Source of the DNA: Blasia pusilla | Taxonomy: Eukaryota | NCBI GenBank assembly: GCA_050084515.1 | Contig: CM114271.1 | Coordinates: 40,176,001 to 40,240,000, forward strand | Direction of reading: 5' to 3' | Length of the DNA stretch: 64,000 nt | Shown: positions 2,763 to 64,000 of the stretch, piece after piece | Numbering within the stretch: position 1 is the first letter of the stretch | Layout of the letters: each line of letters opens with the position of its first letter | Notes under the pieces: generated by a model | Database searches by the model: none | Told to the model about the DNA's origin: nothing | Seen by the model: the letters and a program-made list of their open reading frames with translations, nothing else | Made by a program: the position numbers and the translations under genes

Positions 2763-2822
2763 GAATATCCACTCTTTAATTTCTTCATTTTTCCCTAATA
2801 ATTCTTTATAATAATATCTCTT

Positions 2823-2851
2823 GCCGTGCATAGCACGGGCATGCTAACTAG
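2823..2851 (+). mobile_element. Helitron 3' terminus (hairpin + CTAG|T)
   Basis: GCCGTGC-ATA-GCACGGGC hairpin, then CTAG at 2848-2851 followed by T. Same motif as the other Helitron ends in the window. Confidence 0.7.
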
Positions 2852-4670: not shown

Positions 4671-4723
4671 TTCTAATTTTTCTCTAGAGTGGAATGGTTG
4701 GATAATGAGTCCGTCAGAAGTCG

Positions 4724-4831
4724 AGTGAATACGTGGGAGGCAAATGAATACTCCGAATATATACCATGTTAAATACTAGTGAATACCTGGGAGGCAAGTG
4801 AATACTCCGAATGTATACCATGCTAAATACT
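4724..4831. repeat. Tandem duplication, 2 x 54 bp
   Basis: AGTGAATAC.TGGGAGGCAA.TGAATACTCCGAAT.TATACCATG.TAAATACT at 4724 and 4778. Confidence 0.9.
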
Positions 4832-5313
4832 GTGGCCGAGCTCCTCGTCCTAACTACTCGGACCCTCCATTACAAAGATGAATGAATTTGAAAATTCTGT
4901 TCTAGTTGGCGGGTCTCGCGTGAGAACCCTAATACCTGTGCCAAAACTGACATTGAATATGTCATGTATTCTTGAAGTGTGCGAAAAACGGACTGATAGA
5001 ACTTCAAGATCGCTAAAAGCGCACGAAAATTGACCGTTGCTAAGAGCATCAGTTAACTTACGCCTTCTATAGGTGTGCGAAAACTGATGCGTTTTAAGAG
5101 CGTGCGAAAACTGGCACCTGGTATAGGTGCGCGAAAACGCGTGGCAGTGGTCTATTTTTCCGGGTGTCTCCGGGATGCGAGACAGCACTCTCTATACATA
5201 TACATTATAAATTATACAATTGTGCGGTAACTAACAAATATTCACTTTATTATAAAAACAATGCCCCTTTAAAGGCCAACGTTGACATGATTCTTTGAAT
5301 CGTCCTATAGACA

Positions 5314-5443
5314 ACGCCTCATCGGTCATACTAAAGTTTGAATCATTCCGAGAGATCGCTGCATCAGTTACGCGCTCCATCGGTTATACTAAAGTTTGAA
5401 TCATTCCGAGAGAACGCTGCATCGGTTATACGCTTCATCAGTT
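5314..5443. repeat. Tandem repeat, ~2.3 x ~57 bp
   Basis: CATCGGT.ATACTAAAGTTTGAATCATTCCGAGAGA.CGCTGCATC.GTTA occurs twice, plus a partial third unit. Confidence 0.85.
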
Positions 5444-5682
5444 TAGCTGGCGGGTGCAGCTGTTCTGAAATGTACAAATCAACGTCGTCGAGAAAGGATG
5501 AGAAAAAGCGAGTGAATTTGCGATACATATTCGAACTTCTCTTGGAAATTGCAGATGTCTGATTTGCGGTTTAGGGTATCATTTAGATTGAATGCTACGT
5601 ACACGTAGCATACATCGGTTACAAGTCAACTTCTCCTCCTTGAAAGAATACAATGTGGCTTGCACTCTTTTGTGATTCCTCT

Positions 5683-8133
5683 CTAGATTTCACCATCCCA
5701 AAACGCTTCCAAGACTTTCTTCTCCTCGTCCTTCGATCCGACGATCAGCTCCGTTCCAGGATTGCTTCTGATCTGCAGTTACAACACCGGTGCGTTTCAA
5801 ATTTCGGGACATTCTAAACTGATTCAGGAATGGAGAGCTTTTCATCAACAGTTGCTGAGAATGTGCAACAGCTTGACGCCGCAGTGACTGTGCCTTACTG
5901 CGCATATGTCGACAGCCACGTTTTCGGCCATTTACGCGAGCTGGACAGGCCGATCTGACCTTTCTGGTAAGTAAGAAGAGCATACCTGAGTTTGAAGAGA
6001 GGAGAGCTTGTGGACTTCTTCCTCGGGTATACTCCAGTTGAACACCTCCATATTCTCTTCAATCCTCTTGTCATTGGATGATTTTGGAACCGTGCTCACG
6101 CCTCTTTGTATGAGACATCGAATCAGGACTTGTCCTGGGCTCTTTCCTAACATCAGATGACATTACAATATTTGCATATCTGATGACCTACAGCCCTTTT
6201 GGATTTCGTGGACACTAAATCAGTTCCTCGTTGATTGATGGATTCTCTAGATTCTTGAGCAGGATGCGGTAGCTTGCGGGTGTAATTGAAAAAGCCACAC
6301 ATTCCAGCAGGGGTTAATATATACACCTCATTCACGATGGGCTCGTCGAAGAGGTCGGTAGCTGAAGACCCTAGAGGAGAGTAGGCCTGCGCGATTGTCA
6401 AATGAGAAATCCTGACATGAAGATCGGTTGTTCCAAGAAAACACGACTGCGGAATCACTCTGTCGCTAGAGTTCTGACTCAATATTGTTTTAACTGTTTC
6501 AGAGATTCCAGCAGTGCATGCTGGAGTTTGTTGACCAAGATTCATCAAGGAAAGCATTAGCACGCAGCATCATCGAAGCGGACCTATTTACGTGAGTAGG
6601 AGTAGCTATTCACAAGTTCAGATGCACCTTAACAACTGGCAAATTTTCAGCAGAAAGCAGAACTGAAAGTCACCGACGTCTTACCGTCACATGGATTTTG
6701 TTCTTCTTACAATACTCAAGAACACTATCGTTTCTCCAGTTAGGATGCATCTCCACCTGGAAAGTTCCAACATGCCGAACTGAAGATGCAAACCTTCCCA
6801 AGTTTCTGAAAAAGAGCTGCAATGCTTGTTCCTAGTCTGCAGATAAATGACGACACAAATCTGCTTCAACATGCCGTAATCGTATTGAAGAAAGATGTTG
6901 TATCATCCACAAATTGTACCTGATTGACTGAAGGCATGATGGAAGCAACTTTCATGAGTTCCTCCAGTTTTGGTACAGTGAAGTTGCTGACACCGATGTT
7001 TCTGACTAGCTTCTCCCTAACCAGTCCTTCCATTGCTTGCCAGACTCCGCCCAAATTGAATTGCTTAATATCACCTTGTTTGGGTGGAGAAGAAGTGGTC
7101 TCCGATAGCAGTAAGGGCCAGTGGATCTATGAAGAGACCGTGGAGAGAAAAATCATGAGCGTCAAAGACCTGAGAATGTTCCAAGGTCGTAAAAGACAAG
7201 TTGGGCTGAAGACCAATTTTGTTTCAACAAAAAGGAACGTACCAAGTAGAGGTCCAGATATTTCAGCTTCAGATCATTGAGAGTCCGCTCGCACGCCCCC
7301 CTCACTTTCTCTGGAGAAGTGTCTGTGATCCTGAATTGGCAACAAGCTTGAATTAGTCCCAGGGGATCGTGATCTGTCTCCGGTGCAAACTGATGATCAT
7401 ATCAACTTTTGTGCAGAAAACAGGATTTGAGAGGAAACCCGAATCTTCTAACTGAAGCGTGCCCACCAGAGTTTGGATGTCACAAACAAGTCTTGACGTT
7501 TTATTCCAGCATCGAAGGCCGCGTCAAGGCCTTGTCCAACCTGCTCATCATCAAGGTTTTCGTCACTCACAAGCATTTCAAACCAGACTTTCTTCTCCTA
7601 AGCAATTAATGTTGCCAGTGAGCCCTGATGAGGCTAAACCATTGGCTGTCCACGAGAGCACATCTGCAGAGGGACAGCTGTTCTTGAGCAAGAATTTTTC
7701 GACAGGGAAAGGATTGTCGTAGAAGGTGTAGATAGAGACAAACCTCTTCCTCGTTACCGTAAATGTGTGCACAGTCAATATGTCTATACCCGCTCTGCAC
7801 AGAGTCCAATTGAGAGGATTTCAGCATCTACACAATGTTCCGACAGAGAAGTGTGCGAATTGTAAGGCCAAAGGAGGGCAAGTCCGATGGGGAACTACAG
7901 AGTCCCATGAGACTCGGGTGGAGAAGGGCAACACAGTCTGTGGAGAGAGATTGGATGAAGAAACTCAGCTGCACACTCACCTCAACAATCGCAGAGAACA
8001 CAGCATCACGCACTACATTTGGCTCTGCCTTCCATGTTCCCAAACCCAAAGCAGGAATCCGATCTCCAGTATGCAGCAAGAAGTGCGCCACTTCAGGGGA
8101 CTGGTCTTTCTTCAGCTGGTGCGTCTGAGCCAT
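5683..8133 (-). CDS. Aldo-keto reductase (plant AKR4C-like), 9 exons; possible frame lesion at the start of exon 8
   Basis: GT-AG exons 8133-7981, 7794-7744, 7540-7467, 7330-7243, 7126-6920, 6756-6685, 6386-6327, ~6150-5986 and 5772-5683. They give GLGTW, GYRHIDCAHIYGNE, TSKLW, YLDLYLIHWP, IGVSNF, AYSPLGS, PKS and C-terminal WDGEI*. Catalytic D/Y/K/H intact. The exon 8 acceptor cannot be cleanly placed in frame. Confidence 0.9.
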
Positions 8134-8869
8134 CCTGCTCCCAACTGGCCACCTGATACCTTCCCAATTCCGACTACTACTCCGAAACTGGCCCAAGCTG
8201 TCTTCAAAAGCTCCCGAAACTGTGATCTTTGCAAGCAGGCGATCGCTTTTTTACCGAGTGATCGAAGATCCCAGTAATGTTCATTCTCCGAAAACGCTCC
8301 CAGCGGTTCTGCTAAATATTGCCAGAGGCGAGCTTGCTCAGGCCCCATGGCGTGGCACCACAAGCGCACGTGGCAGAGACACTAGAACCCAAGTGTCGAA
8401 TGCAGTAGATGTGCACTGTGTTCATGGAGCTTTTCTCTCTTTTGCTCTCTACCTCCCTCGATCGAGCATGCAATGTGTCAAAGTGCCCAGCACTGCCACG
8501 ATTTACACTCGTCTTTTGACACCTCGCTGCTCCTAGGAGTCTGCAGACACAAGGGCTGTCTGAAGGACATGGGAACTTCCATAAACACGCAGTGCACTGG
8601 AGCCTCCATTCGCCGGAGAGCAGGGGCATTACAAGTATCCGCCATCTCTGTGTTTCTGCCCACGTCTTTCATCTTGCCATTCCTATCTCCGATCACTTAC
8701 CTCTCTTCTCGCCATTCCTGTCTCAATCAGGAGGATGTGTGCAAAATCGGGCCACAAATTTCAGTCACAGTTTCAAAATGTGCCGACGATGGCTGACTGG
8801 TTACAGAGTTTTGCAATGTGGAACAGCATGTGGCTTCAAAATGAGAAAGAGTTTTGGGAGGAGGGGGGT

Positions 8870-10974: not shown

Positions 10975-11375
10975 ACCGATGTAGATTCAAGAGTAGAATT
11001 TTAGGCTGGGTGAGCCATTTTTGCTTTGATTTTATATCAGAAAGATGTCATGAGAAAAGCGGGAATTTGTGGTATGCATGTAGGCAAGCGAGTTGCCTCG
11101 GTGGGGAGGCCCCGATTTTGGGTTGATGAGGAACAACATCAGAGTGGGACGACGAGTGTTCGTGAGTTTGTTGCTGAAGGATAAGCTACGAGTGTCAGGA
11201 AGGAGAGGCTATAAGCACTTTAGGTCACACAGCCGTCGTGGGATGATCAAGACGGCTAGCTAGGGGTCTAGGGTTAGGTCATAGACGCACAAGTACTTGT
11301 GCATCTATGACCTAACCCTCGCATAATAGCCGGACAGCGCTGACGCGGGGTTATGATGTCGAGTGGCGCATAAGT

Positions 11376-12109
11376 TATCGTGCGTATACACATCGCTACA
11401 CAACATACATCGTTGTCACCGAACACACACACAAATACACACGATCCCATCTTAACTCATGGCATCCAAACAACGAGACAAGAAGTACCAAAATATCTCC
11501 AATTAAATCAAGATCTATGGTTCTTTCAACACCATAGCTCTCCAATGTGTGCACTCTCACATGTCTCTCTCAATGTCAAACCAAACCCACTCTCCTAATG
11601 AGAGGCTTGGATTACACACACAAGGCAAGCAAGACCATGGCTCCGCCGCCTCATTCCAAGAGGTTCAACAAAGAGAGAATGAGCTCTCAAGCTCTCTCTC
11701 CTTGAGGTATACCCCTCCCCTCTCAAGTCACCTCTTTGGCTCTTGACCTAATGTAAGAGGTCAAGGGCTACTTACCAAAAATATGAATTTGATCATATAC
11801 TCAAAATGGTACTTACCTAAAATAGTAAGTTTCTCAATATGGTTCGAAATGAGCCGAAACGAAGAGCAAACTTGCTCTCTCAGGTTTCGCGGGGCCTTAG
11901 CAGGTCATCCTTGATCTTCTGAGCCTATCCTCCACTACTTGCAAAGGTGCTCTACTCGATCTCACCGATCTATCCTAAAAGACATGATAGCTATCGTGCG
12001 CATATACATCGCTACTCAACATACATCGCTGTCACCAAACACACATACGATCCCATGCTAACTCATGGCATCCAAACAACAAGAAAAGAACTACCAAAAT
12101 ATCTCCAAT
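11376..12109 (-). repeat. 3' terminal repeat block B1-A2-B2 (B2 11376-11503, A2 11504-11989, B1 11992-12109)
   Basis: 11376-11503 matches 11992-12109, and 11504-11989 matches 20881-21366. The same arrangement recurs at 60797-61559. Confidence 0.9.
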
Positions 12110-12289
12110 CGCCCCCTACCTGGTGATTAGGTCCCTCTAACTCCACATAGCCATCTATCCCTACCTACTATGACATACATCTCTCGGACGCTACAAGTAA
12201 GAAGTCCGGATGCTCATGTGGCTCCATCGTTACTCGCCTTCTTGTCATCCATGTCCCAGACACAAGTCGAAATGTAGAACTACCTATTC

Positions 12290-13600
12290 TATGTACATCT
12301 GGGACACATCCATCATCCCTGAGGAACCCTAGTGAGAGGTGGCGTCAAGCATGCCATATGCCATCCTCTCGAACATCCATCACAGACTAGCATAATGGCT
12401 GCACCACGAGCACAACCACCCAACATATATCGCAAGCCTGTAAGAACTACTGCCAAGCTCGGATCAACTGTACCCTCAATGTTTGGAAGGTGATATGGCG
12501 CATAGTTAGGCACATGGTCCTTCCAAACCATACCATCGCGTCCCTCCAATAAGAGAACAACTGATGGAAAAACCTCACGCACTCTCAAGATGGTGTGCCC
12601 TGCAGTCACATCCAACGTCGTGGGTGTCGTCTGCTACAAGTAGACATAGTCTCCCTCATGAAACCTCCGGATAGTAGGTCGATAACCACTCCCCCTAATA
12701 GTTGTATACATCAATGTATCCCAATGTTGCGCAATTGCCAAGTTCTCAAACGCCATGGGCATCACTCTCCGGAACAACTCAACCCTCTATGAACATAATC
12801 TCATCCATACATCAGGGTCATCAAGGTTCAACACCTCACCAACATCTCGACAAATGGCCGTAGGAAACTTTAGCTCACGGCCATAAAGCAGCAAGTACGG
12901 TGAGAAAGACGCTAAGGATGCCTGCCTTTTGAATCTGTATCCCATCGCCAACCATGGCAACTGAAGGTCCCAATCTCCTCGGTGAAATCTCTACAAGCCA
13001 TACTTGCGCAATCCTCTCTTCATCGTGTGTACAACCCTCTCCGCTGATCCATCTGCCTCAAGATATCTCACGAAGTGGTGCGGTGGTCAATCAGTGCCTG
13101 ATCACACAAGGCTTGAAACTCCTCGCCAAACTCAATACCTTGATCTGTCAACACCTCAGTTGGTGCACCGTAATGACTCAGCACTCGATCAAGGAAGGCA
13201 TATACTACTCCCTCACTCACTTTTTGAGGCTATGCAACCAACTCTATCCAATTCGAGAAGTGCTCGACCATCACCAACACATAACGACTATTGCGCTCCA
13301 TCAAAGGCAAAGGTCCTCGAAAATCCAAACTCCATCTATAACCTATACCCATGATCGGGAGTGGATGCAACTGTGGAATCAGAACATTAAACAATGCTCG
13401 AACTTGATCATACACCATGCATCTGGCAACAAACTGTTGAATGTCAGTTTGTATGTCTCACCACCAATATTGAATCTCAAGCAAACTATACGTCTACTTC
13501 ACTCCAAAATGACTTGACTCCTCTTGGGCATGATGCACCAAATGTGCTCATTGCCAAGGATGAGGCACAACATGCACTCTACCATCCTCCCACACTCACA
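12290..13600 (-). pseudogene. DDE integrase with C-terminal PHD finger (element 1)
   Basis: ORF fragments 13230-13418 and 12313-12615. PHD reads ...[31 protein letters not shown]. Confidence 0.9.
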
Positions 13601-13637
13601 ACTCATGTGTCCCCTCCCACCGAAACCGTTTGGCTCG

Positions 13638-14990
13638 CTATAGGATCCGATCCCGCTCTCTAGCACCCACTATGCTCGCGATGCTGCCAGTACGCAGATA
13701 CTCCAAGACCACTCCATCGCCGTGAATATCTCGACCACCTGACGTCTCCTCACCGGCCTCTAGATCTAAGGACTCTCCATCAGACATCGCCATGGAAGCC
13801 TTAGCAATCTGGCTCTCCATAGCCAACAAGCCCAAATAGGCTGAAGAATGCCATCCTGGCACCAACTCCTCATCACTCTCACAATACCAACGAGCTTCAG
13901 TCACATCTCGCAGACTCGAGCATGGGTTACGGCTCAAACCAACTGCATCATGGTTGAGCGTCCTTGGTCTATGCACCACCTGGAAGTCATACTCGTGCAA
14001 CAAAAGATCCCACTTGGCAAGCTTCCCTGTAAGCTTGTGGGACTCCATTAACCACTTAAGTGGCTGATGATTTGTAATGATGGTAAAGGGATTGCCGAAT
14101 AGATAACACCTGAAATGTGCGAGTGCCCACACCGCAGCCAAGCACTCACCCTCATACGAGCTATACTTTGCCTTTGCAGCGATGTTTGAGCGACTTGCGT
14201 AAGCCACCACAAACTCTCTACCATCATTGTCATGTTGGGTGAGCACGGCTCCAAGCCCCAACATGCTCCAATCGACTCACATCTGTTGGGCATGTAATGC
14301 AGGAAATAGCCTCTACCTTTGTCTACTGCACACTAAGGCCCCCTAGATATATCGTTTGACCCAGGTACGCAATCTGGTCGTAGAAGAAATTGCACTTGTC
14401 TGGATGTAGCTTTAGCCCATGTAACAACAATCGTCGAAACACCTCCTCTAGATGTCGCTCATGCTCCTCAATTGTGGCGCTTAAGACTACGACGTCATCA
14501 ATATAACACCTACCAAAATCCAAATGTGCGAAGATCCTATCCTAAACCCTCTAAGACTCAACTAGGGCATTCTTTAACCCAAATGGTAAGAACCGCCACT
14601 AGTACAAACAATCCTTCCCGTGAGGATCGATGCCCCAAAATTCTATCTGCCGCCTATCCCCCAATTTGATAGGCATGTGATGGTATCCGGCTCGCAAATC
14701 CAATGAACTGAAGACCTTTGCATGCCCAATCGCATCAAAGATCTCCTCAGGGATGGGCATGGCATACCTACACTAAATCAGAGCCCTCTCCATGTTACTA
14801 TACCTATAGGGTCGTAGGAAGATTGCGTGTCACTCAACAACTCAATGCGGATCCCTTGACCCTTCACCATACCCAAATCTTTCATGCTAAATGCAAAAAA
14901 ACTCCTATAACTCCTCAAGAACTGATGTATGCGGCGCCGCTCTCCTCCTATCATCTTAGGGCCCATATCTGGCTCCCAAGTCTCCATCGT
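13638..14990 (-). pseudogene. Reverse transcriptase and RNase H (element 1)
   Basis: CYIDDVVV, LKLHPDKC, GLGAVL, VAYASR and YEGECLA, with stops and frameshifts. Part of the RT/RH connection appears deleted relative to element 2. Confidence 0.9.
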
Positions 14991-15339
14991 GACTATCGTA
15001 GGACTCTCTGGAGTAGGTGTAGATGGTTGCTATGGTGCAACCCCGTCTCCTACAATCAAACTCGAGTGCTCTCCTATATCCAAGTGCAAACTCTCATCTC
15101 CACGTGCACTACCCGGAACCACGCTCGATGCCATGGCTATCATCTCCTAAAGTACTTGCAAAACATCCCAATAAGTCCAAGGGTATCTCTCACGATCATC
15201 CTTGATGTGTTGATCTCCTCGAGTCTCGCCCCCAGCCACTGCCTCAACCGTCTCGGTAGGCATGGAGCTCACCAACGCAACAACTATGATATGTGGCATC
15301 CTCAAACAACGTTGCTCAACTACTCCTAAGCTGAAAATC

Positions 15340-16245
15340 CATGTCAAGCAGTTCACGTCCATCTCCTGACCCAGGACATGACGTCATAGTCAATACTCTG
15401 ATAGTGACAGTATTGTTGTCACTCCTATAGGGAATCACATCACTCGCTCTCGCTCATCGATGTTGGGCTCCACCAACCTCTGTACCTAGTCATCCCAAAC
15501 CAAGCCAGGTCCGGCCTCCTTGAAAGGCTGCTTGTGGCATGCGAATCCTGTTGACCACAGTCAACGGCGGTCGATCATCTTGCCTCACTGCCTATGATCG
15601 GAGACCTGGATCCAGAATGGAATCCACCAACAAATCAGAGGGGCGCTCCACTCTCGCATACGCCCTTCGCATAACCTCATCTGGCACCAAGTTGGTCCAC
15701 CAAAGACGCAGGCAGTGTGCTCTAGAACCTACACTCGCCGCATCCAAAAACACTTCCGAGCCCATCCATGCGTGCACTTGATGTACACTCGTCACCACGC
15801 GGGACCTCAAATCGCCCAAAATCAGCACATTCTCCAAAATGTATGCTAGAGAACGAGAATGATGCTCCTGCAAGTATCACAAAAATCCGCATCATCTCTG
15901 AAAACAACCTGGACCGAGTGTCACCTAACCCGGTATCCCGTCCAACACTCGACTGGCCCTGACATGGCCAATCAGCAATGACCAGATCTATGGTCCATAC
16001 CCACTCAAAGTCCTGCGGCCCCAACAATGAAATGTCCCTCGGAAGGGAACTCCAGTAATGAATGGCAGACGTAGAAAACAAGTCGAGAAAACATAGGCAT
16101 AAATGTGTCACATGGTGACGTGAAGCGCGCCTTGCAATATCATCAATCTCCACATACAGGTATTGTTGCACGCGCACTCCAGCCTGCAAAACAACAGCTA
16201 ACCAAGTGCTGATCCCTCTAAAGAGACCCAACACCCGAATATCCT
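15340..16245 (-). pseudogene. DNMT3-like C5 cytosine DNA methyltransferase catalytic domain inside the retrotransposon pol region
   Basis: Motifs in canonical order: I RVLGLFRGI, II YVEID, IV DLVIADWPCQG, VI YILENV, VIII DAASVGSRAHCLRLWWTNL, IX ERERVM*FPIG.T, X RHVLGQEMD. One frameshift near 15880 and a few stops. Confidence 0.9.
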
Positions 16246-16844
16246 CTTCTAGGATGCACCACATAATCCGGGTGGTGTCCAAAGGGTTCATTGCAGCACT
16301 CATGGCTACCTGGGGTTCCTCGGACCCGTCACACTCTGATGCAAACGTCTCACTCCACGCGGTCTACACATGCTCAGTGGCTAAGCGTCAAAGTTTCTCA
16401 GTCGAGCCCCAAAGTGGCATCTCTCCTCCACGGACTGATGCGGCTACCATGACACTGCTCTCCATAGAAATGTCAGGAACAGGAGTATCCTTTGCATGGA
16501 CATGTCCCTCAATCAAATCACTAGGCCAAGTGATGGCATTGCTAAATGTTGCTAAGGTCGCCATCTCTCATGGCCGTCGCTCGATCACTGGACCTGTGAA
16601 TCTAACGATTAATAAGTTAAGGGCCCATCACTTGACTGCCATCCTGGTCTGTAGGAAGTTGACTCCTCCCAATAATCCAAGAAAAACCCCATCAGATATA
16701 ACACTGCTCCACCAACCAAGACGTCATAGGACTCTGAATCAATCACTATCGCCTTGGCTCGCACCACGGACTTATCTGTAGGATGTCCCAGGCGAATCCT
16801 TACCATGACCTCATGTCGGGTGATATATTGTGTGGTACTCGCTC

Positions 16845-17000
16845 AACGAGAATTAATTATTGGAGATAGATAGACAGACAAGTAAAACAGCAATAGCCAT
16901 TGATACTATTTTGAATCAAAAAGGTCAAAATGTAATATGTGTTTATGTAGCTATTGGTCAAAAACCTTCTTCTGTAGCTCAAGTAGTTAATACGTTTGAA
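16845..17000 (+). pseudogene. atpA: Nuclear plastid DNA (NUPT): fragment of chloroplast ATP synthase CF1 alpha
   Basis: AT-rich insert translating [51 protein letters not shown] (Walker A region). A 4-bp TAGA duplication shifts the frame. Confidence 0.95.
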
Positions 17001-20000
17001 CATCCAAAGATGTCTGTATCCGGAATGGACAATGCTCCATATCGGCTCTCGTCAAGCCCAATCCTCTGAATGTCGCTTTCCCCAATATGAGGGGTTGCGC
17101 TCCTAAATCCAACACAACACGCTGCAGACTAAAAGCTCTACCTCCGGGACTCACCAATTGGAAGACCTCTCCCCCGTTATCCAGCAACACAATACTAGGA
17201 GAAGCCATGGCACGCTCTATCGCACGACTAGTGGGCATCTCCGCCATCCTAGCAGCCGCAGCTTGACATGAATCTGACGTGGACGGCCCGAGCATCCGCT
17301 CTAAGGGTAGGTCCATCACCTCCTCTGCAATCACCTTTGAATGTGATGCATGAACTCCAACTCCACGCTCACGTAGCATAGCGACCAGCCGAAATACCTC
17401 GGCAGGCGTACCTCCCAATGTCATAACATCGGAAAATATCGGAGCACGGTACACCATCGTGGTTGCCCCCAACATCGTACTCGATACATACTTCTCCTAA
17501 GCATCAGCAATATGAGTCGTCACACTCATTTCTCCCATTGCCTCATTATGCCTGCACACCAATAACATAACCAACTCTTTGGGAACTCTGATCAGGATCC
17601 ATCGATGGGGTCCTCATCGCCTCGGACAACGTGAAAGATTGAGGAAGACCGGTCTATTTCCTGGCTTTCCCTCGCTATGGATCCAACTCTACGGCTGCTC
17701 CACATATCATAATTGCGGCAGCCTCTATCTGGGCAACCTTGCACATCCAACCAGGATCCTCCATATCTCTAGCTCCTCCATATGATGTCGATGCCACGGA
17801 TCCAGCATCGGGTAAACTCAATGCCATAGCGGCAATCTGCTCCTGTAGCTGCTGTATCTTAGCATCCATCCCAGCCTCATGCCCGGCATCTCCCTCGACG
17901 CGTCTAGGTGGTGGGACTCTACCTCCTCCACATGCAACTTCACCACCCTGTCAGGTAATTCCAACTCCTCGTTTCCCAACGAGACAACATGGTGCACGAC
18001 CTCTAGGCCCACTCGGACCGGCTACTCACTCTGATGCCCTCTCTGGCCCTCGGTCCGGACGTAACTCAGTGTGTAAACTAAAACACCTGATGCATGTGTG
18101 ACCATACCTCTGATAATAGTCACACTAATAACCTCTTAGTGTAGCACTATCTCCTCCTTCATGCTGAGGCACACGTCCATGACCCTCACGAGTGCAATCA
18201 CGTTGATCATGGGCTCCACTACATGACCAACAAGTAATCGTAGGCGGCTGTTGTTGAGCCGCATATGAAGAAGCAGGTCTCTATGTAATGGTCTCCCGGT
18301 ATCCTCCCTAAGCTCGTGGTGCCACAATCAACCTATCTAGGAGTCCACGTTGCTGCAGTGGTGATGCAGGCAATCGTGACTGCTCTCGCCCAGAACCCAT
18401 GGTGGCTACGCTCTCCTCCACCATGTTGTGCTCAATATTCTTGGCGGTCCTAAAAACATCTCTAAACGTAGGTGAGGTGTTCATAAGAAGTATCCCCTCC
18501 CCCACCCGTGTCCGCAGGGTCCGATCAAGCATCGCATATCATGATTGGATAGCATGAGCCTCTGTCAACCCCTGAGTGACGTTGATCAATCGACGCAAGA
18601 AAGTGTAAGCCTCATGCAATCTCTCACTCGGGCGCCTCTAGAAGTCATGGATGCTCCACAATTTCTCCGTCCATACCCTCTGGTAGCTCGCCCTCAACTC
18701 AGCGAAGAACTCAACCACGAGGTTGCACCTAGGACGAACTCGACTGGACGGTGCAACTACTCCAGTGTGAGTTACCCCTCCTAAAATATCACGTGCGGAA
18801 GAGGAAGTAGCCTCTCCTGACTCTTCCTCCTCATCTGGGAACGGCTCCGTCCATGACACATAGTGTGGGTCATACTAGAGTGGCCATGCCTCAATCTCTT
18901 GGGCATATCTGTGGGAGAACTCATGGTAATCGTCCATGGGCGCCCCCTCTAAATGCTGGAACATACCGTTCCATGTTGTAAACTAGTTGAACTCTCTAGA
19001 GTTCCTAGCCTGTTGTGAGTCGCGCCAACTCCTAAACTCGATGATGAAGTCGTGCAACTCTATCGTACCTACTGCACCTGAGAACCTACGCGGTCTTCTA
19101 CCATGGTCGTCCATCTCGTACGCCCAAGCAATAGGACTACTCAATATGAGTGGCAAAGCACTAAATTCCTCTACGCCCTCCTCCTCATTTGAAGATGACA
19201 TAGAAGGATGTCGAGGTGGTCCCGCATGTGGATACCCTCGAAACCTCGCGCCACTCCACGTAAATCCTCTAGAGCTACGCTCTAGGATTCCGTGATGACC
19301 CTTGTTCCCCTCTCACACAATCACTCTCAACCTTGCGTGTAATCACGCAATCACTCAATCTAACATACGGCACTCAAGCTACACTCTCTCATCAAGACGT
19401 GTGTTGTGCGGTAACAAGCAGCGTGATGCTGCAAATCAACTGATATATAGTCTCATCGATAAACCATCCTCAACTCTGGACATCCCACACAAGTCTTTGT
19501 TCCCTCAACCCATTTGTCATCTATGCTCTCAGCGTCAGCACGAAACCCAATATCCCAAATAACTTCCCAATACCCGGAATTCCCTCACACTTGCACGGTA
19601 AGAGACCAGAATGGGTAACCTGACAATAATGTCAATGTCGCTCCTTGGCAACTGTAAATCTCGACCCCAACTCGGTCGTGCAGATAACTCCTCCAATAAG
19701 CAAGTTGTAATCTTGTACTGACGTTGCTCAAACCTCCTAAATATTTAGTGCAAATCCAATGGTACGGTGCGACATTGGCGACACGGAACGGCACTCGATA
19801 ATGGGATGCAGCACTCCACGGCATACCCTCCTCAATCAGCAATACACATGCTCTGCTCCTTAGTGAAGGAGCGGCTCCGCGATCGAGACAATACGGTGCG
19901 TCCACAAGCAGCACGACGCGGCAATCGGCGGCGCATTGTAGCTACGCACGTCACGACACGGTACTCGATCGTCCTTGAGTGGCTACCAATCACAACATAG

Positions 20001-20880
20001 CAGAATGAAATGAAAACTCAAACACCGTGACCCAAGGTCGCCTGCCATCATTGGTTGATCACGAAATTGCGATGATGGTGGCATCCAAAACAAAGTATGT
20101 GGTGGTGGCGCAAGTTAGAGAATCAACGGTCATCGTGGAAGACCCTCCACTCCGTAATGGTGGCAATGGCAACCAAGGGTGGACAACGGCCGAACGTAGC
20201 TCTCAGTAGCGCTAGGCGGCGGCGGCCGACGGTGGCCCGTGGACCATTGACGATGACGACGGACCGTTGATGGTGACGGTTGACCGTTGACGATGACTAT
20301 GACCGCAACAGCTGCCGCCGCTGCCACTGATTTAGGGTTTGAACAATTTTACCATACAAATCGCCTTGCAATAAAAATTTTGCAAGATTGACCATAAAAT
20401 TTTGCTCGCAACTATAAATTATGCACTATTTGTTGCACAATGTGCACAGGTTTATGATCTACGACGATGTCAAAAAATATTTTGAATCGTACATTCGAGT
20501 AAAAACTGACGGGGACTGTCGTAAAGCCCAATGTCTCTTTCTCCTACACAAAATTTGGCAGCGCTTCCGCGCTGTGCACTGATTTCTCCCAAAAAAATTG
20601 TAAAACGTGTGAAAATACAAATCAACAAGCTACATGGTGCTCCCGAGAGCACCATGTAGGGGAAATTGGCTCCCATACTCAATCCCTATCAAAAATTGGA
20701 CAGCGCTTCCGCACGCCACTCTTTCACACGAAAAATCGGCAAAGGAAACATAAGCTCTCCAGCTCTGGTGAGCACTCCCATGAACCATTGAATGGGGAAT
20801 ACGATCCCCAACCTGCAAAACCAGTGAGTGACCAGCGAGCTCCCCCATGAAACTCTCTCACTCATCTCATTCTCTCTTTG

Positions 20881-21366
20881 TAAATCAAGATCCAAACTCT
20901 CTCAACACCATAGCTCTCAATGTGTGCACTCTCACATGTCTCTCTGAATATCAAACCAAACCCACTCTCCTAATGAGAGGCTTGGATTACACACAAGGCA
21001 AGCAAGACCATGGCTCCGCCGCCTCATGCCAAGAGGTTCAACAAAAAGAGAATGAGCTCTCAAGCTCTCTCTCCTTAAGGTATACCCCTCACCTCTTCCA
21101 AGCTCTCTCCATGGTAACCTATGCTCCCAAGTCACCTCTTTGGCTCTTGACCTGATATAAGAGGTCAAGGGCCATTTACCAAAAATAGAAAGTCGACCAT
21201 ATATTCAAAATAATACTTCCCTAAAATAGTAAGTTTCTCAATATGACTCCAAATGAGCCGAAACGAAGGGGTCTCAACAAGCTATCCCCGACCTCCTTAG
21301 TCTGTCCTCCACTACTCGCAAAGGCACTCAACTAGATCTCACCGATCTATCCTAAAAGACGTGACA
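20881..21366 (-). repeat. 5' terminal repeat A1 of element 1
   Basis: Matches 11504-11989 and ~60925-61442; ends GACGTGACA on the + strand; has no B segment. Confidence 0.9.
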
Positions 21367-24300
21367 AGGTATAGGATGGAAATATGGGCCATACTTTGAG
21401 CCACGCTAGCTAGTCACCAAAATAACTGCAAGTCCGAGTAGACATAAAGAGCCAGTTGCGAGGGCTTTGCTGGTGATCGGGTGCGGAAGAAGCCATTATG
21501 GCTCCAAGGAGACATGGCAAGTGGTGAGCATGGTCACACAGGGCGGCGCACTTGCTAGCAAATGGAACTACTAAGCCAGAGATGGAGAGAGCTGAAAGGA
21601 GTTCATGACAAAGGGCGCGCATGAGGAGGTCCTTGGGGGAGGGTGCAAAGCAAGGAAGGAGCCAGGTAGGGGTTTCTCATAGGGAGGTGAGGCAGAAGTT
21701 TCATTTTACAACCCTCATAACTAAATGAGTGCCTAGCAAAATATCATAACTCTAGTTCGCTCACTCTAGGATGATTTGCGCATTGGTGAGGTCTCTTGGT
21801 AGAGACGCAAGAGACACAAGAGATGAGAAGCGAACAAGGTTGAGAATTTCATGTGTGTTTATGGTCTTGACTAGGAAACGTGAACCAAGGCTTGAGAGGA
21901 GTCGAGTCTAGGAAGAGTGGTTTCCAAAGTGGTGAGAACCGGATTTGGAACATGACCAATATGTGGGGTTTTGACTATATTTTGGACCATAACTTTTAGT
22001 CTTGAGATGCATTTGGGATAAATAATGTGGCATTGGAAGGCTAATGCAAATCGAATTTCAATGCTCTAAAGATCTCAGAAAACACACGAGCAAAGGATGA
22101 GAAACTTCCCAAAAACCACTTTACACAACTTCCCGTAAAGTTGTTTTTGGGAAGTTTTTCATCCTTTGGTACCCAACTTGTGTACCACAAGTTGGGTATG
22201 TTGTGGGCCAAAAATAGGGGTTCGAACGTCTTTTCCCAAAGGATAGGGGAGGGGGAAGAAGCCTAGAAGTACTAGTAAGGGGGAAGGTCTCAAAGACTGC
22301 TTGGGACTCAAACCCCACTTTGGAGCACCGCAAGGAGCCCAAGGGCACGGAATGGATCAAGAGCTTGGCGTTGGGACTCGAAACCCAAACCAAGTCCAAT
22401 AGAGTAGATTTTAGAGGTCCCCATTGGATTCCAACTCACGATTCATTTAGTTTGGTCTCAATTTGGGGCTCATGCAATGTTCATTAGATAGTTGGGATCG
22501 CTAGGCGTGCGAATGTCGTTTTAGGTGGTTGGACTAACCAAAAAGTGTGTCCCAAGTCTCAAAAGAGTTGCTCGTGTTGGGAAGTGAGGAACTAGGAAGA
22601 TTGAGCTCAATGAGGTGCCGAGTTGAGAATTCAGTGAGTTGGAAGGTTGATTGACTCAGACCTGACTAATGTAAGTGTGTTTGGGTGCAGATCAGAAGTG
22701 AGAGCATGTCCTACTGAACGTACGCTTCCGCAACACGAAAGATTGATGTTCAAAAGGAGTAGGTGCACAATATTTCAGTTTGGTCTAAGGAACGAGGACG
22801 GGGTTATAGGTATAAAGGAGCTATGGAGAGACGTATACACGGGCTTGTAAGGGCTACACGTAGGGACGGGGGGAGCCACTAAAGCTCCAAGGAACTATGG
22901 AGTTACAAAGGTATCTATAGCTACATCTGGAGGAGAATGAACTGCGCAGGGCTAGGAATAGCCATGAGTTGAGTAGACGTCGGACGGGGGGACACCGACA
23001 TCATAGGGTGGCCAACCCACAAGCAGGTTTAGTTGGGGCTAAGTGCGGAGACAGTAGTCGGGCTGTGGGGACCCCTCTTGCATAGGGCACTTTGCATGTA
23101 CCAGTATGGACGCAAGGAGCCAAGCTACAGGGGCGGATTTGGGTAAGGAAAATCGAGGTCGAGCGGTGACTACGGTAGGGAGGCGGATGGGGTAGAGGCA
23201 ATGCATGGTTTGCCGCACTACCAGGTTAGAATGATGGACATGGTAAGCACGCTAACCGTGGTATGCGGCTATGAGGTTAAGCGGTTAAGCGGTTAAGATA
23301 GTTAGGCATTGGACGTGGTAGGTTGGATCGGAGGTAGTTGGTGATTGGAGAGCTACATGGTTGGTGGGAGTTGCAACTTTTTGGACAAGTAGGAGGTATT
23401 TTGTGACTTGGTATTATGGAGCGAGATTGTGATTACATTAGTGGCGAGATTTGCTAGCCATTTTGAGTCGTTGACAGAGACCCAATTTACTAGCACCATG
23501 CGGACTGGGAGCAGGATGGGTGATCCGCACCAAGGGTATGCTATGGAGTGCTAGAGGTGGAGACACATGCACCGCCACTAACAGGTAATCTACATCTGTT
23601 GACGGGAGGTTGGACGTGCTACTCGAGGAGATTTTCGTGCCATGGAGGTTGTTGCACCACATGGATCAATCAATGTTGACCATGGAGTAGAATGATGGCA
23701 GGGATGCCCATGTTACCCATCAAAGTCCTTTTTCCCGCACTTTTCTTTTGTCATTGAGGGTGTTGGGTATCATGTAGTAGCTTAGTCTAGATGGGTGTAG
23801 CAATGGTGACGAGTGTAGACTCCTTGCATGTGTCGCATATTTGTGGACATAGGGCGGTTTCTCGAGTAGGGGTAGTGTATATGACCCGAAAGAGTGCAAG
23901 TAGCTTAGGTGAGCTTGGTCAAGAGGCTCAGGGTGAGTCCGAGTCTTAAGTGTGCATGAGGTCGGATGTGCCATCACGGGATTATCATTAGCATAGGTGA
24001 GCTAGTGAGGAGTGTGGAAGACTCTCGTTGAGTTTGAGTGCTTGAGCGTGTGAGATAGGGTTGTCTTCATGGTGTTCTTCGAAGGTTTGGAAGAACGGGG
24101 TAGTTTGAGTAGTGGTAGTGGAGTAACACAAAGTGGAGTGAGTATCAAGGAATTTAGAGTGAGGAACCCTCCTCCCCGGCGGACTCCTGTCAATGGTTGG
24201 ATTGTCATCACTATACAACAAGTTTGGTGACAAGATTGTAGACGGAGATAGTGTTACGTGGGGGGAGATGGACAACATGAACCATTTGGGCATGTGTCAT

Positions 24301-60796: not shown

Positions 60797-63700
60797 TGTT
60801 GTGCGCATATACATCGCTACACAACATACATCGTTGTCACCAAACACACACACAAACACACACGATCTCATGCTTACTCATGGCATCCAAACAACGAGAC
60901 AAGAAGTACCAAAATATCTCCAATTAAAACAAGGTGAAATCTCTCTCACAACACCATATCATCTCACATGTGTGCACTCTCACATGTCTCTCTCAATATC
61001 AAACCAAACCCACTCTCCTAATGAGAGGCTTGGATTACATTCACAAGGCAAGGGACCATAGATCCGCCGCCTCTTGCCAAGAGGTTCAACAAAGAAAGAA
61101 TGAGCTCTCAAGCTCTCTCTCCTTGAGGTATATCCCTCCCCTCTCCCAAGCTCTCTCCATGGTAACCTATGCTCCCAAGTCATCTCCTTGGCTCTTGACC
61201 TGATGTAGGAGATCAAGGGCCACTTCCCAAAATATAATTTTGACCATATACTCAAAACAATACATACCTAAAATAGTAAGTTCCTCAATATGGCTCCAAA
61301 TGAGCCGAAACGAAGGGGAAACCTGCTCTCTCTCTGGTTTCTCGGGGCCTGAGCAGGTCATCCTCGACCTCTTGAGCATATCCTCTACTACTCGCGAAGG
61401 CGCTCTACTAGATCTCACTGATCTATCCTAAAAGATGTGACAATTGTCGTGTGCATACACATCGCTACACAACATATATCGTTGTCACCAAACACACGCA
61501 CGATCCCATGCTAACTCATGGCATCCAAACAATGAGACAAGTACCAAAATATCTCCAATCGCCCCCCTAGTTGGTGGTTAGGTCCCTCTAACTCCAGATA
61601 GCCATCTATTCCTACCAACCATGACATACATCTCTTGGACGCTACGAGCAAAAAGGCCGAGTGCTCATGTGGCCCCATTGTTAGTCACCTCCTTGTCATC
61701 CATGTCACAGACACAAGTCGGAAGCTAAAACTACCTAGTCTATGTACATCTAGGATACATCCATTGTCCGTGAGGAACCCTAGTGAGAGGTGGCGTCAAA
61801 CATGCCATATGCCATCCTCTCGAACATCCATCATAGACTAGCATAGTGGCTGCACCACGGGTGGAACCACACAACATACATCGCAAGCATGCAGGAACAA
61901 CTGCTAAGCTCGGATCAACTATATCGTCAATGTTTGGAAGATGACATGGGGCACAATTACGCACATGGTCCTTCCAAACCATACCATCGCGTCCCTTCAA
62001 TAAGAGAACACCGGATGGCAAAATCTCACGCACTCTCAAGATGGTGCGCCCTGCATTCATATCCAATGTCGTGGATGCCGTCTGCTGCAAGTAGACATAA
62101 TCTCCTTGATGAAACCTCTGGATAGTAGGTCGATAACCACCTCCCGGTATAGTTGCATATCTCAATGTATCTCGATGCTGCGCAATCGCCAAGTTCTCAA
62201 ATGCCATGGGCATCACTCTTCGAAACAATTCAGCCCTCTGAGAACATGCTCGCATCCATACATCAAGGTCATCAAGGTTCAACATCTCACCAACATCTCG
62301 ACGAATGGCCACAGGTAAATCTGGCTCTCGGCCATACAAAAGCAAGTACGGTGAGAAAGACGCTAAGGATTCCTGCTTGTTGAATCTGTATCCCATTGCT
62401 AACCACGGAAATTGGAAGTCCCAATCTCCTAGATGACTTCTCTGCAAGCCATATTTGCGTAATTCTCTCTTCACCGTCTGCACAACCCCCTCCGCTAGTC
62501 CATCCGCCTCAAGATGATCTCGCGAAGTAGTACGGTGGTCGATGAGTGTCTGATCACCCAAGGCTTGAAACTCCTCGCGGAACTATGTATCTTGTTCTGT
62601 CAACACCTCAGCTGGTGCGCCGTAATGACTCAACACCCGATCTAAGAAGGCATACGCTACTTCCTCACTCGCTTTATCACGCAATGCAACCAACTCTATC
62701 CACTTGGAGAAGTGCTCAACCATCACCAACACATAACGACTATGGCGCTCTGTCAAAGGTAAAGGTCTTGCAAAATCCAAACTCTATCAATAACCTAAAC
62801 GCGTGATCAGAAGTGGATGAAATTGTGGAGTTGGAGCATTGAACGATGCCAAGACTCGATCACACACCACGCATCTTGCAACAAAGTGCTACATGTCAAT
62901 CTGCATGCCTCGCCACCAATACTGAATTTGGAGCAAGCTATACATCCGCTTCACTCCATAATGACCCAACTCCTCATTGGCATGACGCACCAAATGTGCT
63001 CTCTATAAAGGATGAGGCACTACACGCACTCTACCATCCTTCCATACTCAAAACATATGTGTCCCCTCCCACCAGAACCATCTGGCTCGCTGTAGGATCC
63101 AATCTTGCTCTCTAGCTCCCACTATGCTCGCAACGCTGCTAGTACGCAAGTACTCCAAGACTACTCCATCATCGTGAATATCTCGGCCATCTGTCGTCTC
63201 CTCATCGGCCTCTGGATCTAAGGACTCTCCATCAAATCTTGCCATCAAAGTCTCAACAACCTGGCTCTCCATAGCCAAAAAGCCCAAATAGGCTGACACG
63301 TGCCATCTTGGCACCAACTCCTCATCACTCTCTCCATGCCAACGAGCTCCAGTCGCATCTTGCTAACTCGGGCATAGGTTACGGCTCAAACCAACTGCAT
63401 CATGGTTGAGCATCCGAGGTCTATGCACCACTTGGAAGTCATACTCGTGCAACAAAAGAGCCCACCTCACGAGCTTCCTTGTAAGCTTGTCGGACTCCAT
63501 CAACCACTTAAATGGAAAATGATCAATAATGATGGTAAAGGGATTTTGGAATAGATAACATCCGAAATGTGCAACAACCCACACTGCAGCCAAGCACTCA
63601 TCCTCAAACGAGCTATACTTTGCCTCTGCAGCGTTTTTTGAGCAACTAGCGTAAGCCACCATGAACTCTCTACCATCATCGTCATGCTGAGTGAGCACGA

Positions 63701-64000
63701 CTCCAAGCCCCAAAATGCTCCAATCGGTATGCAACTGGAAAGGACGCCCCCTGATCGGTCTCCTCAATATGGGCACGGGCGTCAATCTATCCTTGAGCAT
63801 CTGAAATGCTCTCTCATGCTTATCCTCCCAGTGCCACTCATGATCCACCTTGGTCAGCAAGGTCAGTGGTTTCACAATCGAGCTGAAACCCTTGACGTAC
63901 CGTCGATAGAAGTTGGCCAATCCCATGAATATACGAACTCGACTCACATTTGTAGGGCGTAGAATGCGTGAAATAGCCTCTACCTTCGTCTGCTACATCC
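60797..64000 (-). mobile_element. Second copy of the Gypsy family (3' part: RT end-RH-IN-PHD plus B1-A2-B2 repeats); continues beyond the window
   Basis: ORFs 63363-63947 (FMGLANFYRRYV, LHTDWS, RNase H), 62583-62780 and 61740-62561 (integrase + PHD). Repeats B2 60797-~60924, A2 ~60925-61442, B1 61445-61559. Confidence 0.93.

Follow-up and report, generated by a model that had tools for sequence, protein, structure and literature searches.

Circularly permuted terminal repeats in a Ty3/Gypsy-type retroelement of Blasia pusilla

Element 1, a Ty3/Gypsy-type retroelement lying on the minus strand of a 64,000-nucleotide stretch of Blasia pusilla DNA (GCA_050084515.1, contig CM114271.1, positions 40,176,001 to 40,240,000; hereafter, the window), carries split direct repeats in the order A1, internal region, B1, 2 nt, A2, B2, a terminal arrangement that corresponds to an ordinary LTR in circularly permuted form. 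A polypurine-type tract (PPT) at the start of B, a candidate self-priming primer-binding site (PBS) at the end of A and a TATA motif indicate that the signals of reverse transcription define a unit B·A, whereas integrated copies start at the start of A (TGTC…) and finish at the end of B (…GACA). Because the integrated ends fall at a CA-NN-TG sequence inside B·A, integration appears to occur within the reverse-transcription unit. In a lineage that is abundant and transcribed in at least one plant genome, the signals of reverse transcription and the ends of integration disagree by a circular permutation. In the textbook scheme for LTR retrotransposons and retroviruses, integrase acts on both of the ends made by reverse transcription; given the permuted signals and ends, replication or integration must depart from that scheme, as the earlier note on this DNA had proposed. 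It is probable, in our view, that the element is a DNA-methyltransferase-bearing Gypsy element with a B·A unit whose DDE integrase cuts a joined-LTR intermediate, with the transcript ends, the intermediate and the cut palindrome all predicted from the arrangement of repeats and signals.

The layout of element 1 is confirmed, since a repeat search, blastn and alignments recovered the order A1-ORFs-B1-A2-B2 that had been claimed for it (Table 1). A1 (21364-20881) and A2 (11987-11504) share 79.0% identity over 515 columns, and B1 (12109-11989) and B2 (11503-11373) share 83.2% over 131 columns. The alignments also place the end of A2 (11504) directly against the start of B2 (11503), with a gap or overlap of 0, exactly where the earlier note had put this boundary. 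The 5' repeat consists of A alone and the 3' block of B-A-B, which is not the equal pair expected of LTRs, and blastn found no B-like remnant 3' of A1 in the window. The independent copy reported to share the B1-A2-B2 block is indeed present (copy 2, minus strand); blastn aligns it with 14274-11380 at 85.0% identity across 2932 columns. The permuted A-genes-B-A-B layout is supported as a family trait, and not as a deletion accident, because copy 2 shows it as well, and so does a family of metagenome loci.

Table 1. Features of element 1 and of the second copy in the window
Feature	Position	Strand	Basis or remark
5' flank ACCT (element orientation), candidate target-site duplication	21367..21370	-	3/4 bases match 3' flank
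A1, 5' repeat	20881..21366	-	starts TGTCAC; repeat search, blastn, alignment
Candidate self-priming PBS, 15 nt, adjoining A1	20866..20880	-	perfect reverse complement of A2 positions 307-321 (11683-11669)
Degenerate internal region	12121..20865	-	Pfam PF00145, PF00078, PF17917, PF17919, PF17921, PF00665, PF00628
gag with CCHC	~18280-18128	-	
159-nt insertion private to element 1	16845..17003	+	resembles ATP synthase alpha/beta nucleotide-binding segment
Protease-like piece	16842-16612	-	
C5 DNA methyltransferase	16363-15595	-	PF00145; PCQ and ENV motifs readable
Reverse transcriptase (RT)	15029-14326	-	RVT_1, E 9e-21
RNase H	14276-13641	-	RT_RNaseH, E 7e-29
Integrase H2C2 and DDE core	13457-12800	-	Integrase_H2C2 E 2.4e-08, rve E 9.9e-11 (frames translated with X at stops)
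PHD finger	12400-12316	-	Pfam PF00628
Polypurine-type tract GGTAGGGGGCG adjoining B1	12110..12120	-	alignment
B1, internal copy of short repeat	11992..12109	-	repeat search, blastn, alignment
Two bases separating B1 end (…GATA) from A2 start (TATC…)	11990..11991	-	alignments
A2, 3' copy of long repeat	11504..11989	-	repeat search, blastn, alignment
B2, terminal copy of short repeat	11376..11503	-	end …GATA, versus …GACA in relatives
3' flank ACTT, candidate target-site duplication	11372..11375	-	versus 5' ACCT
Copy 2, 5' part beyond window edge	60801..64000	-	3' end PPT-B1-NN-A2-B2; B2 60801-60924, A2 60925-61444, B1 61447-61559

The metagenome family is related to P0028 at the protein level and shows matching PPT, PBS, end, duplication and joint features, although at the nucleotide level its A repeat gives no blastn match to the window A at E<=1e-4 and its B repeat only a weak one to the window B (74-84% over 37-73 nt). 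Among 13 distinct 3' sides (11 loci and the two window copies), A follows B1 in eight and the element ends with a single B in five, whereas all six informative 5' sides, drawn from two families, read flank|A-PBS. In the L034 family, the stretch of 300 nt that follows A1 is conserved and does not resemble B. The best-preserved relative, L001, retains frames of 1369 and 1047 aa with one in-frame stop between them and carries PPT-B-NN-A, its contig stopping before A1 and within A2; every other sequenced copy examined is degenerate. As a control, more distant Gypsy loci of the same scan have one ordinary LTR pair (L058, 334 nt, 96%; L077, 796 nt, 99.7%). A further candidate for an A…B-A-B arrangement, L015/L020, was rejected, because tblastn showed its 919-nt repeat to interrupt the pol frame between two copies of a 57-nt coding stretch.

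These loci bear directly on the possibility, raised at the outset, that element 1 descends by deletion or rearrangement from a canonical element with A+B LTRs, the 5' LTR having lost its B and B1 having arisen by local duplication. Such an origin would suit a window that shows a single 5' end, an element that is old and broken (A1/A2 at 79%, frames of 213 aa or less) and an A+B unit with canonical TG…CA ends. We nevertheless regard it as very improbable: A runs straight into the conserved PBS region without B at 6/6 informative 5' ends in two families, a purine tract followed by B1 occurs in 13/13 3' sides, and the PBS adjoins A rather than B. Moreover, among the best-supported joints listed, 212 DNA reads link the region after A1 to the end of A and none link it to the end of B, and published elements of Klebsormidium nitens share the layout (PMC5890265). 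Still less credible, and hardly worth entertaining, is that faulty assembly, or ordinary elements inserted in a nested or tandem fashion, produced the layout. Repeats are difficult to assemble and the family is very abundant, but the order and its base-exact joints are the same in the two window copies, in metagenome contigs with differing record prefixes and in raw DNA reads, which span both PPT|B and B·A and reach a depth of about 900-1100 over A2|B2. The sequences flanking the elements are unrelated to one another, apart from the matching 4-bp duplications.

Judged from its sequence, element 1 is an old, broken copy from a Ty3/Gypsy lineage in which a cytosine methyltransferase of the DNMT3 type is combined with a PHD finger at the C-terminus. 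Its longest stop-to-stop frame does not exceed 213 aa, but the Ty3/Gypsy Pol order of protease, RT, RNase H and integrase is present on the minus strand. The claim of a Gypsy DDE integrase without a tyrosine recombinase stands: rve and H2C2 were both matched, a search of all six frames of element 1, translated with X at stops, with PF00589 (Phage_integrase) gave no match at E<=0.05, and PF00589 is absent among the Pfam families found in four related polyproteins. The methyltransferase and PHD domains, in turn, had been overlooked in the earlier reading, and both PF00145 (16363-15725, E 1.7e-05, 24.9 bits against a cut-off of 22) and PF00628 were matched. The RNase H piece is 55-65% identical to liverwort proteins, some of which carry PF00145, and 40% identical (E 1.6e-32) to K. 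nitens KFL_009030040, a protein with PF00145, RT, RNase H and rve; the region around methyltransferase motif IV is 42% identical over 52 aa to a part of the same protein that lies upstream of its RT. The methyltransferase is likewise upstream of RT in element 1, an order common to the K. nitens and metagenome relatives.

By its domains, layout and pairwise similarity, element 1 would thus be assigned to the DNMT-bearing kind named KnitGypsy-Dnmt3, which the legend of Fig. 4c in de Mendoza et al. (2018, Nat Commun 9:1341, PMC5890265) describes in K. nitens as combining DIRS-type repeats with Gypsy domains. The combination that had been thought undescribed was therefore already in print, and the layout itself, with a precedent since 2018, is not new. 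Element 1 resembles KnitGypsy-Dnmt3 in its C5 DNA methyltransferase upstream of RT in a Gypsy polyprotein and in its A-coding-B-A-B repeats (PMC5890265, Fig. 4c legend). It differs in that its nearest proteins are from liverworts, with about 40% identity to the K. nitens protein, and in that a PHD finger lies 3' of its integrase, whereas Pfam detects none in the partial K. nitens protein. Section 9 of PMC5890265 is silent on the ends, target duplication and mechanism of the K. nitens elements, and the terms 'primer binding', 'polypurine' and 'target site' do not occur in the main text (term search). Among the titles listed in literature searches, no second description of Gypsy elements with split repeats was found, the name KnitGypsy occurring in PMC5890265 alone, and the supplements of that paper may add detail on the K. 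nitens repeats. The PPT at B1, the self-priming PBS at A1, the TGTC…GACA ends with a 4-bp duplication, the palindrome and the exact A2|B2 joint were not found in print. The print record found thus amounts to one figure legend (PMC5890265), and the cis signals offer concrete predictions for the bench.

With respect to priming, the earlier note had reported that a TGG-type PBS after A1 and a PPT at A2 are both absent. This is correct as far as it goes but misleading, in that a candidate PBS of the self-priming type adjoins the end of A1 and a PPT adjoins the start of B1. A homologous G-run tract adjoins B1 in 7/7 elements (element 1, copy 2, L034, L024, L043, L013 and L001). The 15-nt complementarity between the candidate PBS and A2 was reached by 0/20000 shuffles of A; the corresponding segment of A1 (21056-21042) has one mismatch, and a TATA motif at 21084-21081 lies 28 nt upstream of it, a spacing of 28-33 nt being common to element 1, the L034 family and L001. 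In four of six elements (element 1, L034, L024 and L013), the PBS pairs from its first base with a segment located 169-180 nt before the end of A, while in L023 the pairing is 10 nt and begins at the second base, and L007 has a deletion in A at the pairing segment. Between L034 and L024, two paired substitutions preserve the pairing. The A repeat of the lineage also contains a second PBS-like copy, which forms a hairpin with the primer segment. The candidate PBS would pair with the predicted start of the element's own transcript.

In this respect, the element recalls the Tf1/sushi and plant Tcn1 Gypsy elements, which are self-priming and have ordinary paired LTRs (Neumann et al. 2019, PMC6317226). 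As described there, those elements likewise lack a tRNA-type PBS; in element 1, the bases after the 5' repeat pair with a segment that would form the first bases of the transcript. Unlike their paired LTRs, the repeats of element 1 are permuted, and the A repeat of its lineage has the additional PBS-like copy and hairpin.

TG…CA ends together with 4-bp target duplications are the hallmark of a DDE integrase and not of a tyrosine recombinase; PAT-like, Ngaro and DIRS1 elements, which encode the latter, leave no target duplication. Both marks had been missed in the earlier reading. The ends are TGTC…(G/A)ACA in all copies. The 4-bp duplications are perfect in L034 (CATA/CATA) and L007 (TACA/TACA) and match at 3/4 bases in L023 and element 1, that is, at 14/16 positions over the only four elements that have both flanks, two of them imperfect (P about 3e-06 at p=0.3). 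Bases 11990-11991 form the centre of a 10-bp palindrome, GATAGCTATC in element 1 and GACAATTGTC in copy 2. At the B·A joint the palindrome reads CA-NN-TG, and B1-NN-A2 carries the sequence with which the element ends in B and that with which it starts in A. The A2|B2 joint, in turn, is exactly the end of A followed by the start of B in 6/7 elements, L010 having a 20-nt insertion there. Matched changes within the palindrome (GC to AT, CA to TA) could be taken as compensatory but are not counted here as a sign of selection, because all of them fall on CAG/CTG sites, which are symmetric, and methylation-driven deamination suffices to explain them.

Taken together, the TG…CA ends and the 4-bp duplication argue for ordinary DDE-integrase chemistry over a recombinase route of the DIRS type. 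In the latter, as for DIRS, PAT or Ngaro elements, a transcript short at both ends would be completed on B1·A2 into a closed circle and inserted by a recombinase acting in trans or not recognised as such, the Gypsy integrase being a passenger. The repeat layout does match that of PAT/Ngaro/DIRS-type elements (PMC5890265), and a few RNA reads do span A2|B2 (depth 5-14). As in the DIRS order, the split direct repeats run A1-internal-B1A2-B2, and the internal joint B1-NN-A2 holds the joined ends of the element. Unlike DIRS elements, the lineage of element 1 has a DDE integrase, no recombinase, TG…CA ends and 4-bp duplications. PF00589 is without a match in the six frames (E<=0.05) and in the polyproteins of four relatives, the DDE core (rve) is conserved in the relatives, and the PBS and PPT occupy the positions of ordinary strong-stop priming, all of which makes the recombinase route quite improbable.

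DNA and RNA reads of the same species label show that the family is transcribed. It is very abundant. The reads were pooled over many copies at 80% likeness, so that B1 and B2, or A1 and A2, are indistinguishable in them. DNA reads cross PPT|B and B·A. At 11378, 1949 DNA reads diverge from the window with an agreement of 0.39; this poor agreement indicates that the end of B is a true element end lying beside many flanks. The RNA is strongly strand-biased in 30/30 bins and is read as sense, assuming the common library design with an antisense first mate. RNA reads over PPT|B number 19, 53 and 20, and those over B·A 54, 100 and 65. Compared with the sequence on either side, the A2|B2 joint is covered at a relative depth of 0.06-0.12 in RNA and 0.33 in DNA, which is compatible with most transcripts stopping no later than the end of A. 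Places where transcripts begin or end are few and weak in these pooled copies (11720, 20586 and others), with none at the predicted start (about 21056) or at the end of A2.

If the signals are used as they are placed, reverse transcription should yield DNA with B·A at either end. The two ends would then be joined, whether in a circle, as tandem LTRs or through ligation at about the step of integration, and the A2|B2 joint, with the end of A joined to the start of B, is an LTR-LTR junction. Integrase would cleave the palindrome of the upstream LTR and expose two CA-3'OH ends, the insertion of which would give A-internal-B·A|B. The A-internal-B form would follow from the cutting of both palindromes or from later recombination between B1 and B2; the 5/13 3' sides of this form may have arisen in either way, as products of insertion itself or by that recombination. 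Under a symmetric circle model, the mirror form, A|B·A-internal-B, should be equally frequent, and this form was seen at 0/6 5' sides versus an extra unit in 8/13 3' sides (Fisher P 0.018), so that an asymmetry must be assumed. For example, the upstream LTR might become double-stranded first, or the mirror form might be lost faster by A/A recombination.

It is also conceivable, although unlikely, that an extra template switch, such as a plus-strand jump from the end of A to the start of B, makes a linear A-internal-B·A|B or a longer product, which integrase only trims, with no circle or ligation. The precise A2|B2 joint of 6/7 elements suits a polymerase jump as well as a blunt ligation, a one-sided jump would account for an extra unit found on the 3' side only, and the hairpin-forming PBS-like copy beside the primer segment in A provides extra pairing sites. 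However, no series of standard strand transfers could be written that leads from the predicted transcript to the product, and an equivalent minus-strand jump would make the mirror form, which is unobserved.

Cleavage of a joined-LTR intermediate, the route preferred here, would assign a regular role to a form that is regarded as a dead end in retroviruses. Solving the route would tell whether a DDE integrase can take the joined-LTR form as a normal substrate and would show the origin of split direct repeats, so far only modelled for DIRS-type elements. More tentatively, a Gypsy lineage extending from charophytes to liverworts may integrate via CA-NN-TG inside the LTR, its DDE integrase routinely using a joined-LTR (circular or tandem) intermediate. 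If so, the same logic may account for the split direct repeats of DIRS/PAT/Ngaro elements, and the lineage's own methyltransferase could help to mark the cDNA. Retroviral integrases are described as cleaving palindromic LTR-LTR junctions (PMC1905944, PMC1180852). Retroviral 2-LTR circles, as presented in these sources, share with the present lineage a CA-NN…TG palindrome made up of both element ends, which a DDE integrase cuts into two processed ends in retroviruses and would cut likewise here. In retroviruses, the palindrome forms where the ends of reverse transcription meet, and it belongs to a side path, whereas in element 1 it lies inside the LTR defined by reverse transcription and would serve the regular route.

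On a practical level, solving the route would also show in what way annotation software built around equal LTRs mis-calls elements of this kind. The internal region of element 1 also contains the private 159-nt insertion on the opposite strand (Table 1), whose PF00006 match (E 1.6e-05, 25.1 bits) falls under the cut-off of 29.5; it is missing from most family copies, as judged from 781 DNA reads that join 16844 directly to 17004.

Element 1 (minus strand), a degenerate Ty3/Gypsy copy, carries two repeat families, which a repeat search and self-blastn of the window delimit as a long repeat (A, 79.0% identity over 515 columns) and a short repeat (B, 83.2% over 131 columns). In the repeat alignments, A starts with TGTCAC in A1 and TATCAT in A2 and ends with …GATTTA, B runs from ATTGGAG to …CGATA, A2 and B2 meet at 11504/11503, and two bases (11991-11990) separate B1 from A2. 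A second copy, cut by the window edge, is 85.0% identical to 14274-11380 (blastn) and has the same block of B1, two bases, A2 and B2. Repeat search, self-blastn and alignments thus agree with the coordinates and layout that an earlier note had read from the sequence, including the B1-A2-B2 block of the second copy.

Features of element 1, its surroundings and related metagenome loci
Feature	Position	Strand	Remark
A1	21364-20881	-	
A2	11987-11504	-	
B1	12109-11989	-	
B2	11503-11373	-	
Copy 2	60801-64000	-	
C5 cytosine DNA methyltransferase remnant	15595-16363	-	PF00145, E 1.7e-05, above curated cut-off
PHD finger	12316-12400	-	PF00628, E 1.2e-08
159-nt insertion private to element 1	16845-17003	+	like ATP synthase alpha/beta nucleotide-binding segment, PF00006, below cut-off
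Hairpin of PBS-like copy and primer segment in A (from sequence)	window 11711-11669; L034 ~5988-6031; L001 8809-8855		
Near-perfect palindrome	11270-11319		50 nt at 96%, just outside 3' flank of element 1
Near-perfect palindrome	20630-20659		30 nt at 93%, in leader after A1 of element 1
Lone 110-nt fragment	45006-45115	+	77-79% identical to A positions ~276-389 (TATA and primer-segment region), far from both copies
L001, best-preserved relative	976-8229		frames of 1369 and 1047 aa
In-frame stop of L001	5083-5085		between DNMT and RT regions
Repeat in L015/L020	7237-8148 and 12156-13212		flanked by 57-nt duplicated coding stretch

The layout A-internal-B·A-B is a trait of the lineage. An alignment of 12 relatives was used to scan metagenomes, and the 80 loci kept were examined by self-comparison and by blastn with the repeats of one of them, L034. 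At E<=1e-4, blastn does not match the A of this metagenome family to the window's A, and the match between its B and the window's B is weak (74-84% over 37-73 nt); the architecture is the same as in element 1 despite the diverged repeats. When loci that share identical flanks are counted once (L009=L043, L024=L025), 11 distinct 3' sides remain. A follows B1 in six (L009/43, L010, L013, L024/25, L034, L012), some incomplete, i.e., the L013 contig ends in A2, B2 of L024/25 is cut after 56 nt and L012 is internally deleted; a single B followed by unrelated flank is found in five (L003, L007, L011, L017, L023). With both window copies added, the extra A|B is present in 8 of 13 3' sides and absent from 5. 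All six informative 5' sides (L007, L013, L023, L024/25, L034, element 1) read flank, A and a conserved post-A region, with B neither before nor after A1; L002, whose A is missing its first 79 nt, was excluded. The complete A+B 5' repeat that the earlier note had considered for other copies was seen in none of the six. More distant Gypsy loci of the same scan (L058, L077) have one ordinary LTR pair, so the method detects canonical LTRs where present. L015 and L020 were ruled out as examples of an A-B-A-B layout, since their pol frame is broken by a 919-nt stretch that repeats an upstream segment. The single in-frame stop between the two frames of L001 may represent a mutation or serve for read-through.

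Candidate signals for reverse transcription recur as well. A G-run polypurine tract (PPT) adjoins the B1 start in 7/7 elements (element 1, copy 2, L034, L024, L043, L013, L001), and the bases right after A1 are reverse-complementary to a stretch within A located 169-180 nt upstream of the A end. The perfect complement measures 15 nt in element 1 (reached by 0 of 20000 shuffles of A), 11 nt in L034 (11 of 20000), 11 nt in L024 (2 of 20000) and 9 nt in L013 (68 of 20000); that of L023 (10 nt) begins at the second base after A1, and L007 has a deletion in A at the complementary segment. Between L034 and L024, two post-A1 differences are matched by two partner changes in A and pairing is kept, as expected if the primer-binding site (PBS) is recopied from a self-primer each cycle, as it is in Tf1. 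The distance from a TATA motif to the primer segment downstream of it is 28-33 nt in element 1, the L034 family and L001. Just after the motif, and directly before the primer segment, A holds a PBS-like copy with a 3-nt loop between, making a hairpin possible; this is present in three families whose sequences differ at that place. Self-priming is described for plant elements (PMC6317226).

The B1-A2 joint consists of the B end (…GACA/…GATA), two bases and the A start (TGTC…/TATC…). The two bases are GC in element 1, L009/43 and L013, AT in copy 2 and L010, TC in L034, AC in L024 and GT in L001, and the ten joint bases form a perfect palindrome in 5/8 elements. The differences in this palindrome fall on symmetric CAG/CTG sites and were therefore not counted as covariation. 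In six of seven elements, the A end, as set by A1 and the PBS, meets the B start, as set by the purine tract and B1, at A2|B2; the exception is L010, with ~20 extra bases. Integrated copies start with TGTC and end with (G/A)ACA, and over the four elements with both flanks, the 4-bp target duplications match at 14/16 positions (L034, CATA/CATA; L007, TACA/TACA; L023, GGTA/AGTA; element 1, ACCT/ACTT).

The reverse-transcription signals thus define a unit B·A, in that the purine tract precedes B, the PBS follows A, and A contains the promoter and the predicted start; the insertion ends, with TG…CA and a 4-bp duplication, define a unit A|B. Each unit is a circular permutation of the other, and the integrated copy corresponds to a two-LTR form that has been opened at the upstream unit's palindrome. 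On this basis, we propose that this palindrome is cleaved by a DDE integrase and that the A end is joined to the B start; cleavage after CA on both strands would leave two processed ends, as has been reported for retroviral LTR-LTR junctions (PMC1905944, PMC1180852). The extra unit occurs on 8/13 3' sides vs. 0/6 5' sides (P 0.018, the sides not being fully independent), and a plain circle model does not account for this 3'-only position. Speculatively, the upstream LTR might be double-stranded long before the downstream LTR, or the mirror form, in which 340-nt A repeats would be only ~115 nt apart, might for that reason disappear faster. Copies of the form A-internal-B may be primary products, with both palindromes cut, or B1/B2 recombinants.

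No stop-to-stop frame in element 1 exceeds 213 aa, so this copy is dead. Pfam was run on its pieces and on three sense frames with X in place of stops, and the CCHC gag and protease-like pieces were identified by eye. The order is CCHC gag, protease-like, DNA_methylase (PF00145), RVT_1, RT_RNaseH, Integrase_H2C2, rve and PHD. The methyltransferase remnant, left out of the earlier note, sits between protease and RT and retains PCQ and ENV motifs. The PHD finger, also present in many RNase H-matched relatives, lies 3' of the integrase, whereas in chromoviruses this position is occupied by a chromodomain. No tyrosine recombinase model matched any frame at E<=0.05, and the three antisense frames gave a sub-threshold ATP-synthase match as their sole Pfam match. 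The 159-nt insertion is skipped (16844->17004) in 781 DNA reads of the family and may be a captured organelle-derived fragment.

The RNase H piece matched 61 longer proteins, the best from liverworts (Calypogeia fissa, 65%; Riccia sorocarpa, 64%; Marchantia polymorpha, 55-65%), and two of the matched Marchantia proteins carry PF00145. Klebsormidium nitens KFL_009030040 (40%, E 1.6e-32) has the Pfam domains DNA_methylase, RVT_1, RNase H, H2C2 and rve; the DNMT piece of element 1 (410 relatives at E<=0.001 in a representative library) aligns with its motif-IV region, upstream of its RT. KnitGypsy-Dnmt3 of this alga was described by de Mendoza et al. 2018 (PMC5890265), where the Fig. 4c legend states that Gypsy domains are combined with DIRS-type repeats. 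The earlier note correctly read element 1 as non-canonical, with a DDE integrase and no recombinase, but its claim of novelty falls, because this combination is already in print for the KnitGypsy-Dnmt3 lineage (PMC5890265, Fig. 4c legend). Element 1 adds a new, degenerate member from another host lineage to a kind already published. The main text of PMC5890265 does not mention 'primer binding', 'polypurine' or 'target site', and its section 9 offers no mechanism for KnitGypsy elements. The literature searched yielded neither a second description of KnitGypsy or such a Gypsy layout nor a printed account of the cis signals, ends and target duplications set out here, which make the mechanism testable.

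Reads from one DNA run (~1% used for depth) and three RNA runs under one species label were mapped at 80% likeness, which pools many copies and leaves A1/A2 and B1/B2 reads inseparable. The family is very abundant (DNA depth ~800-3300 across it). At the B2 end, 1949 DNA reads continue unlike the window with low agreement among them, which marks a true element end beside many different flanks; the read joints listed are part of a set with 299 more. All three RNA runs contain transcripts of the family, at a depth rising from ~10-30 in the 5' part to ~100-220 over integrase and PHD. RNA reads have almost all one orientation (30/30 bins), which is the sense strand on the usual library design. They cross PPT|B (19, 53 and 20 reads in the three runs) and B·A (54, 100 and 65), and the depth at A2|B2 relative to its neighbourhood is 0.06-0.12 in RNA vs. 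0.33 in DNA; the majority of transcripts apparently do not extend past the A end, the pattern of an R-U5…U3-R transcript. Differences between reads and window (11200-21600) are mostly C>T and G>A.
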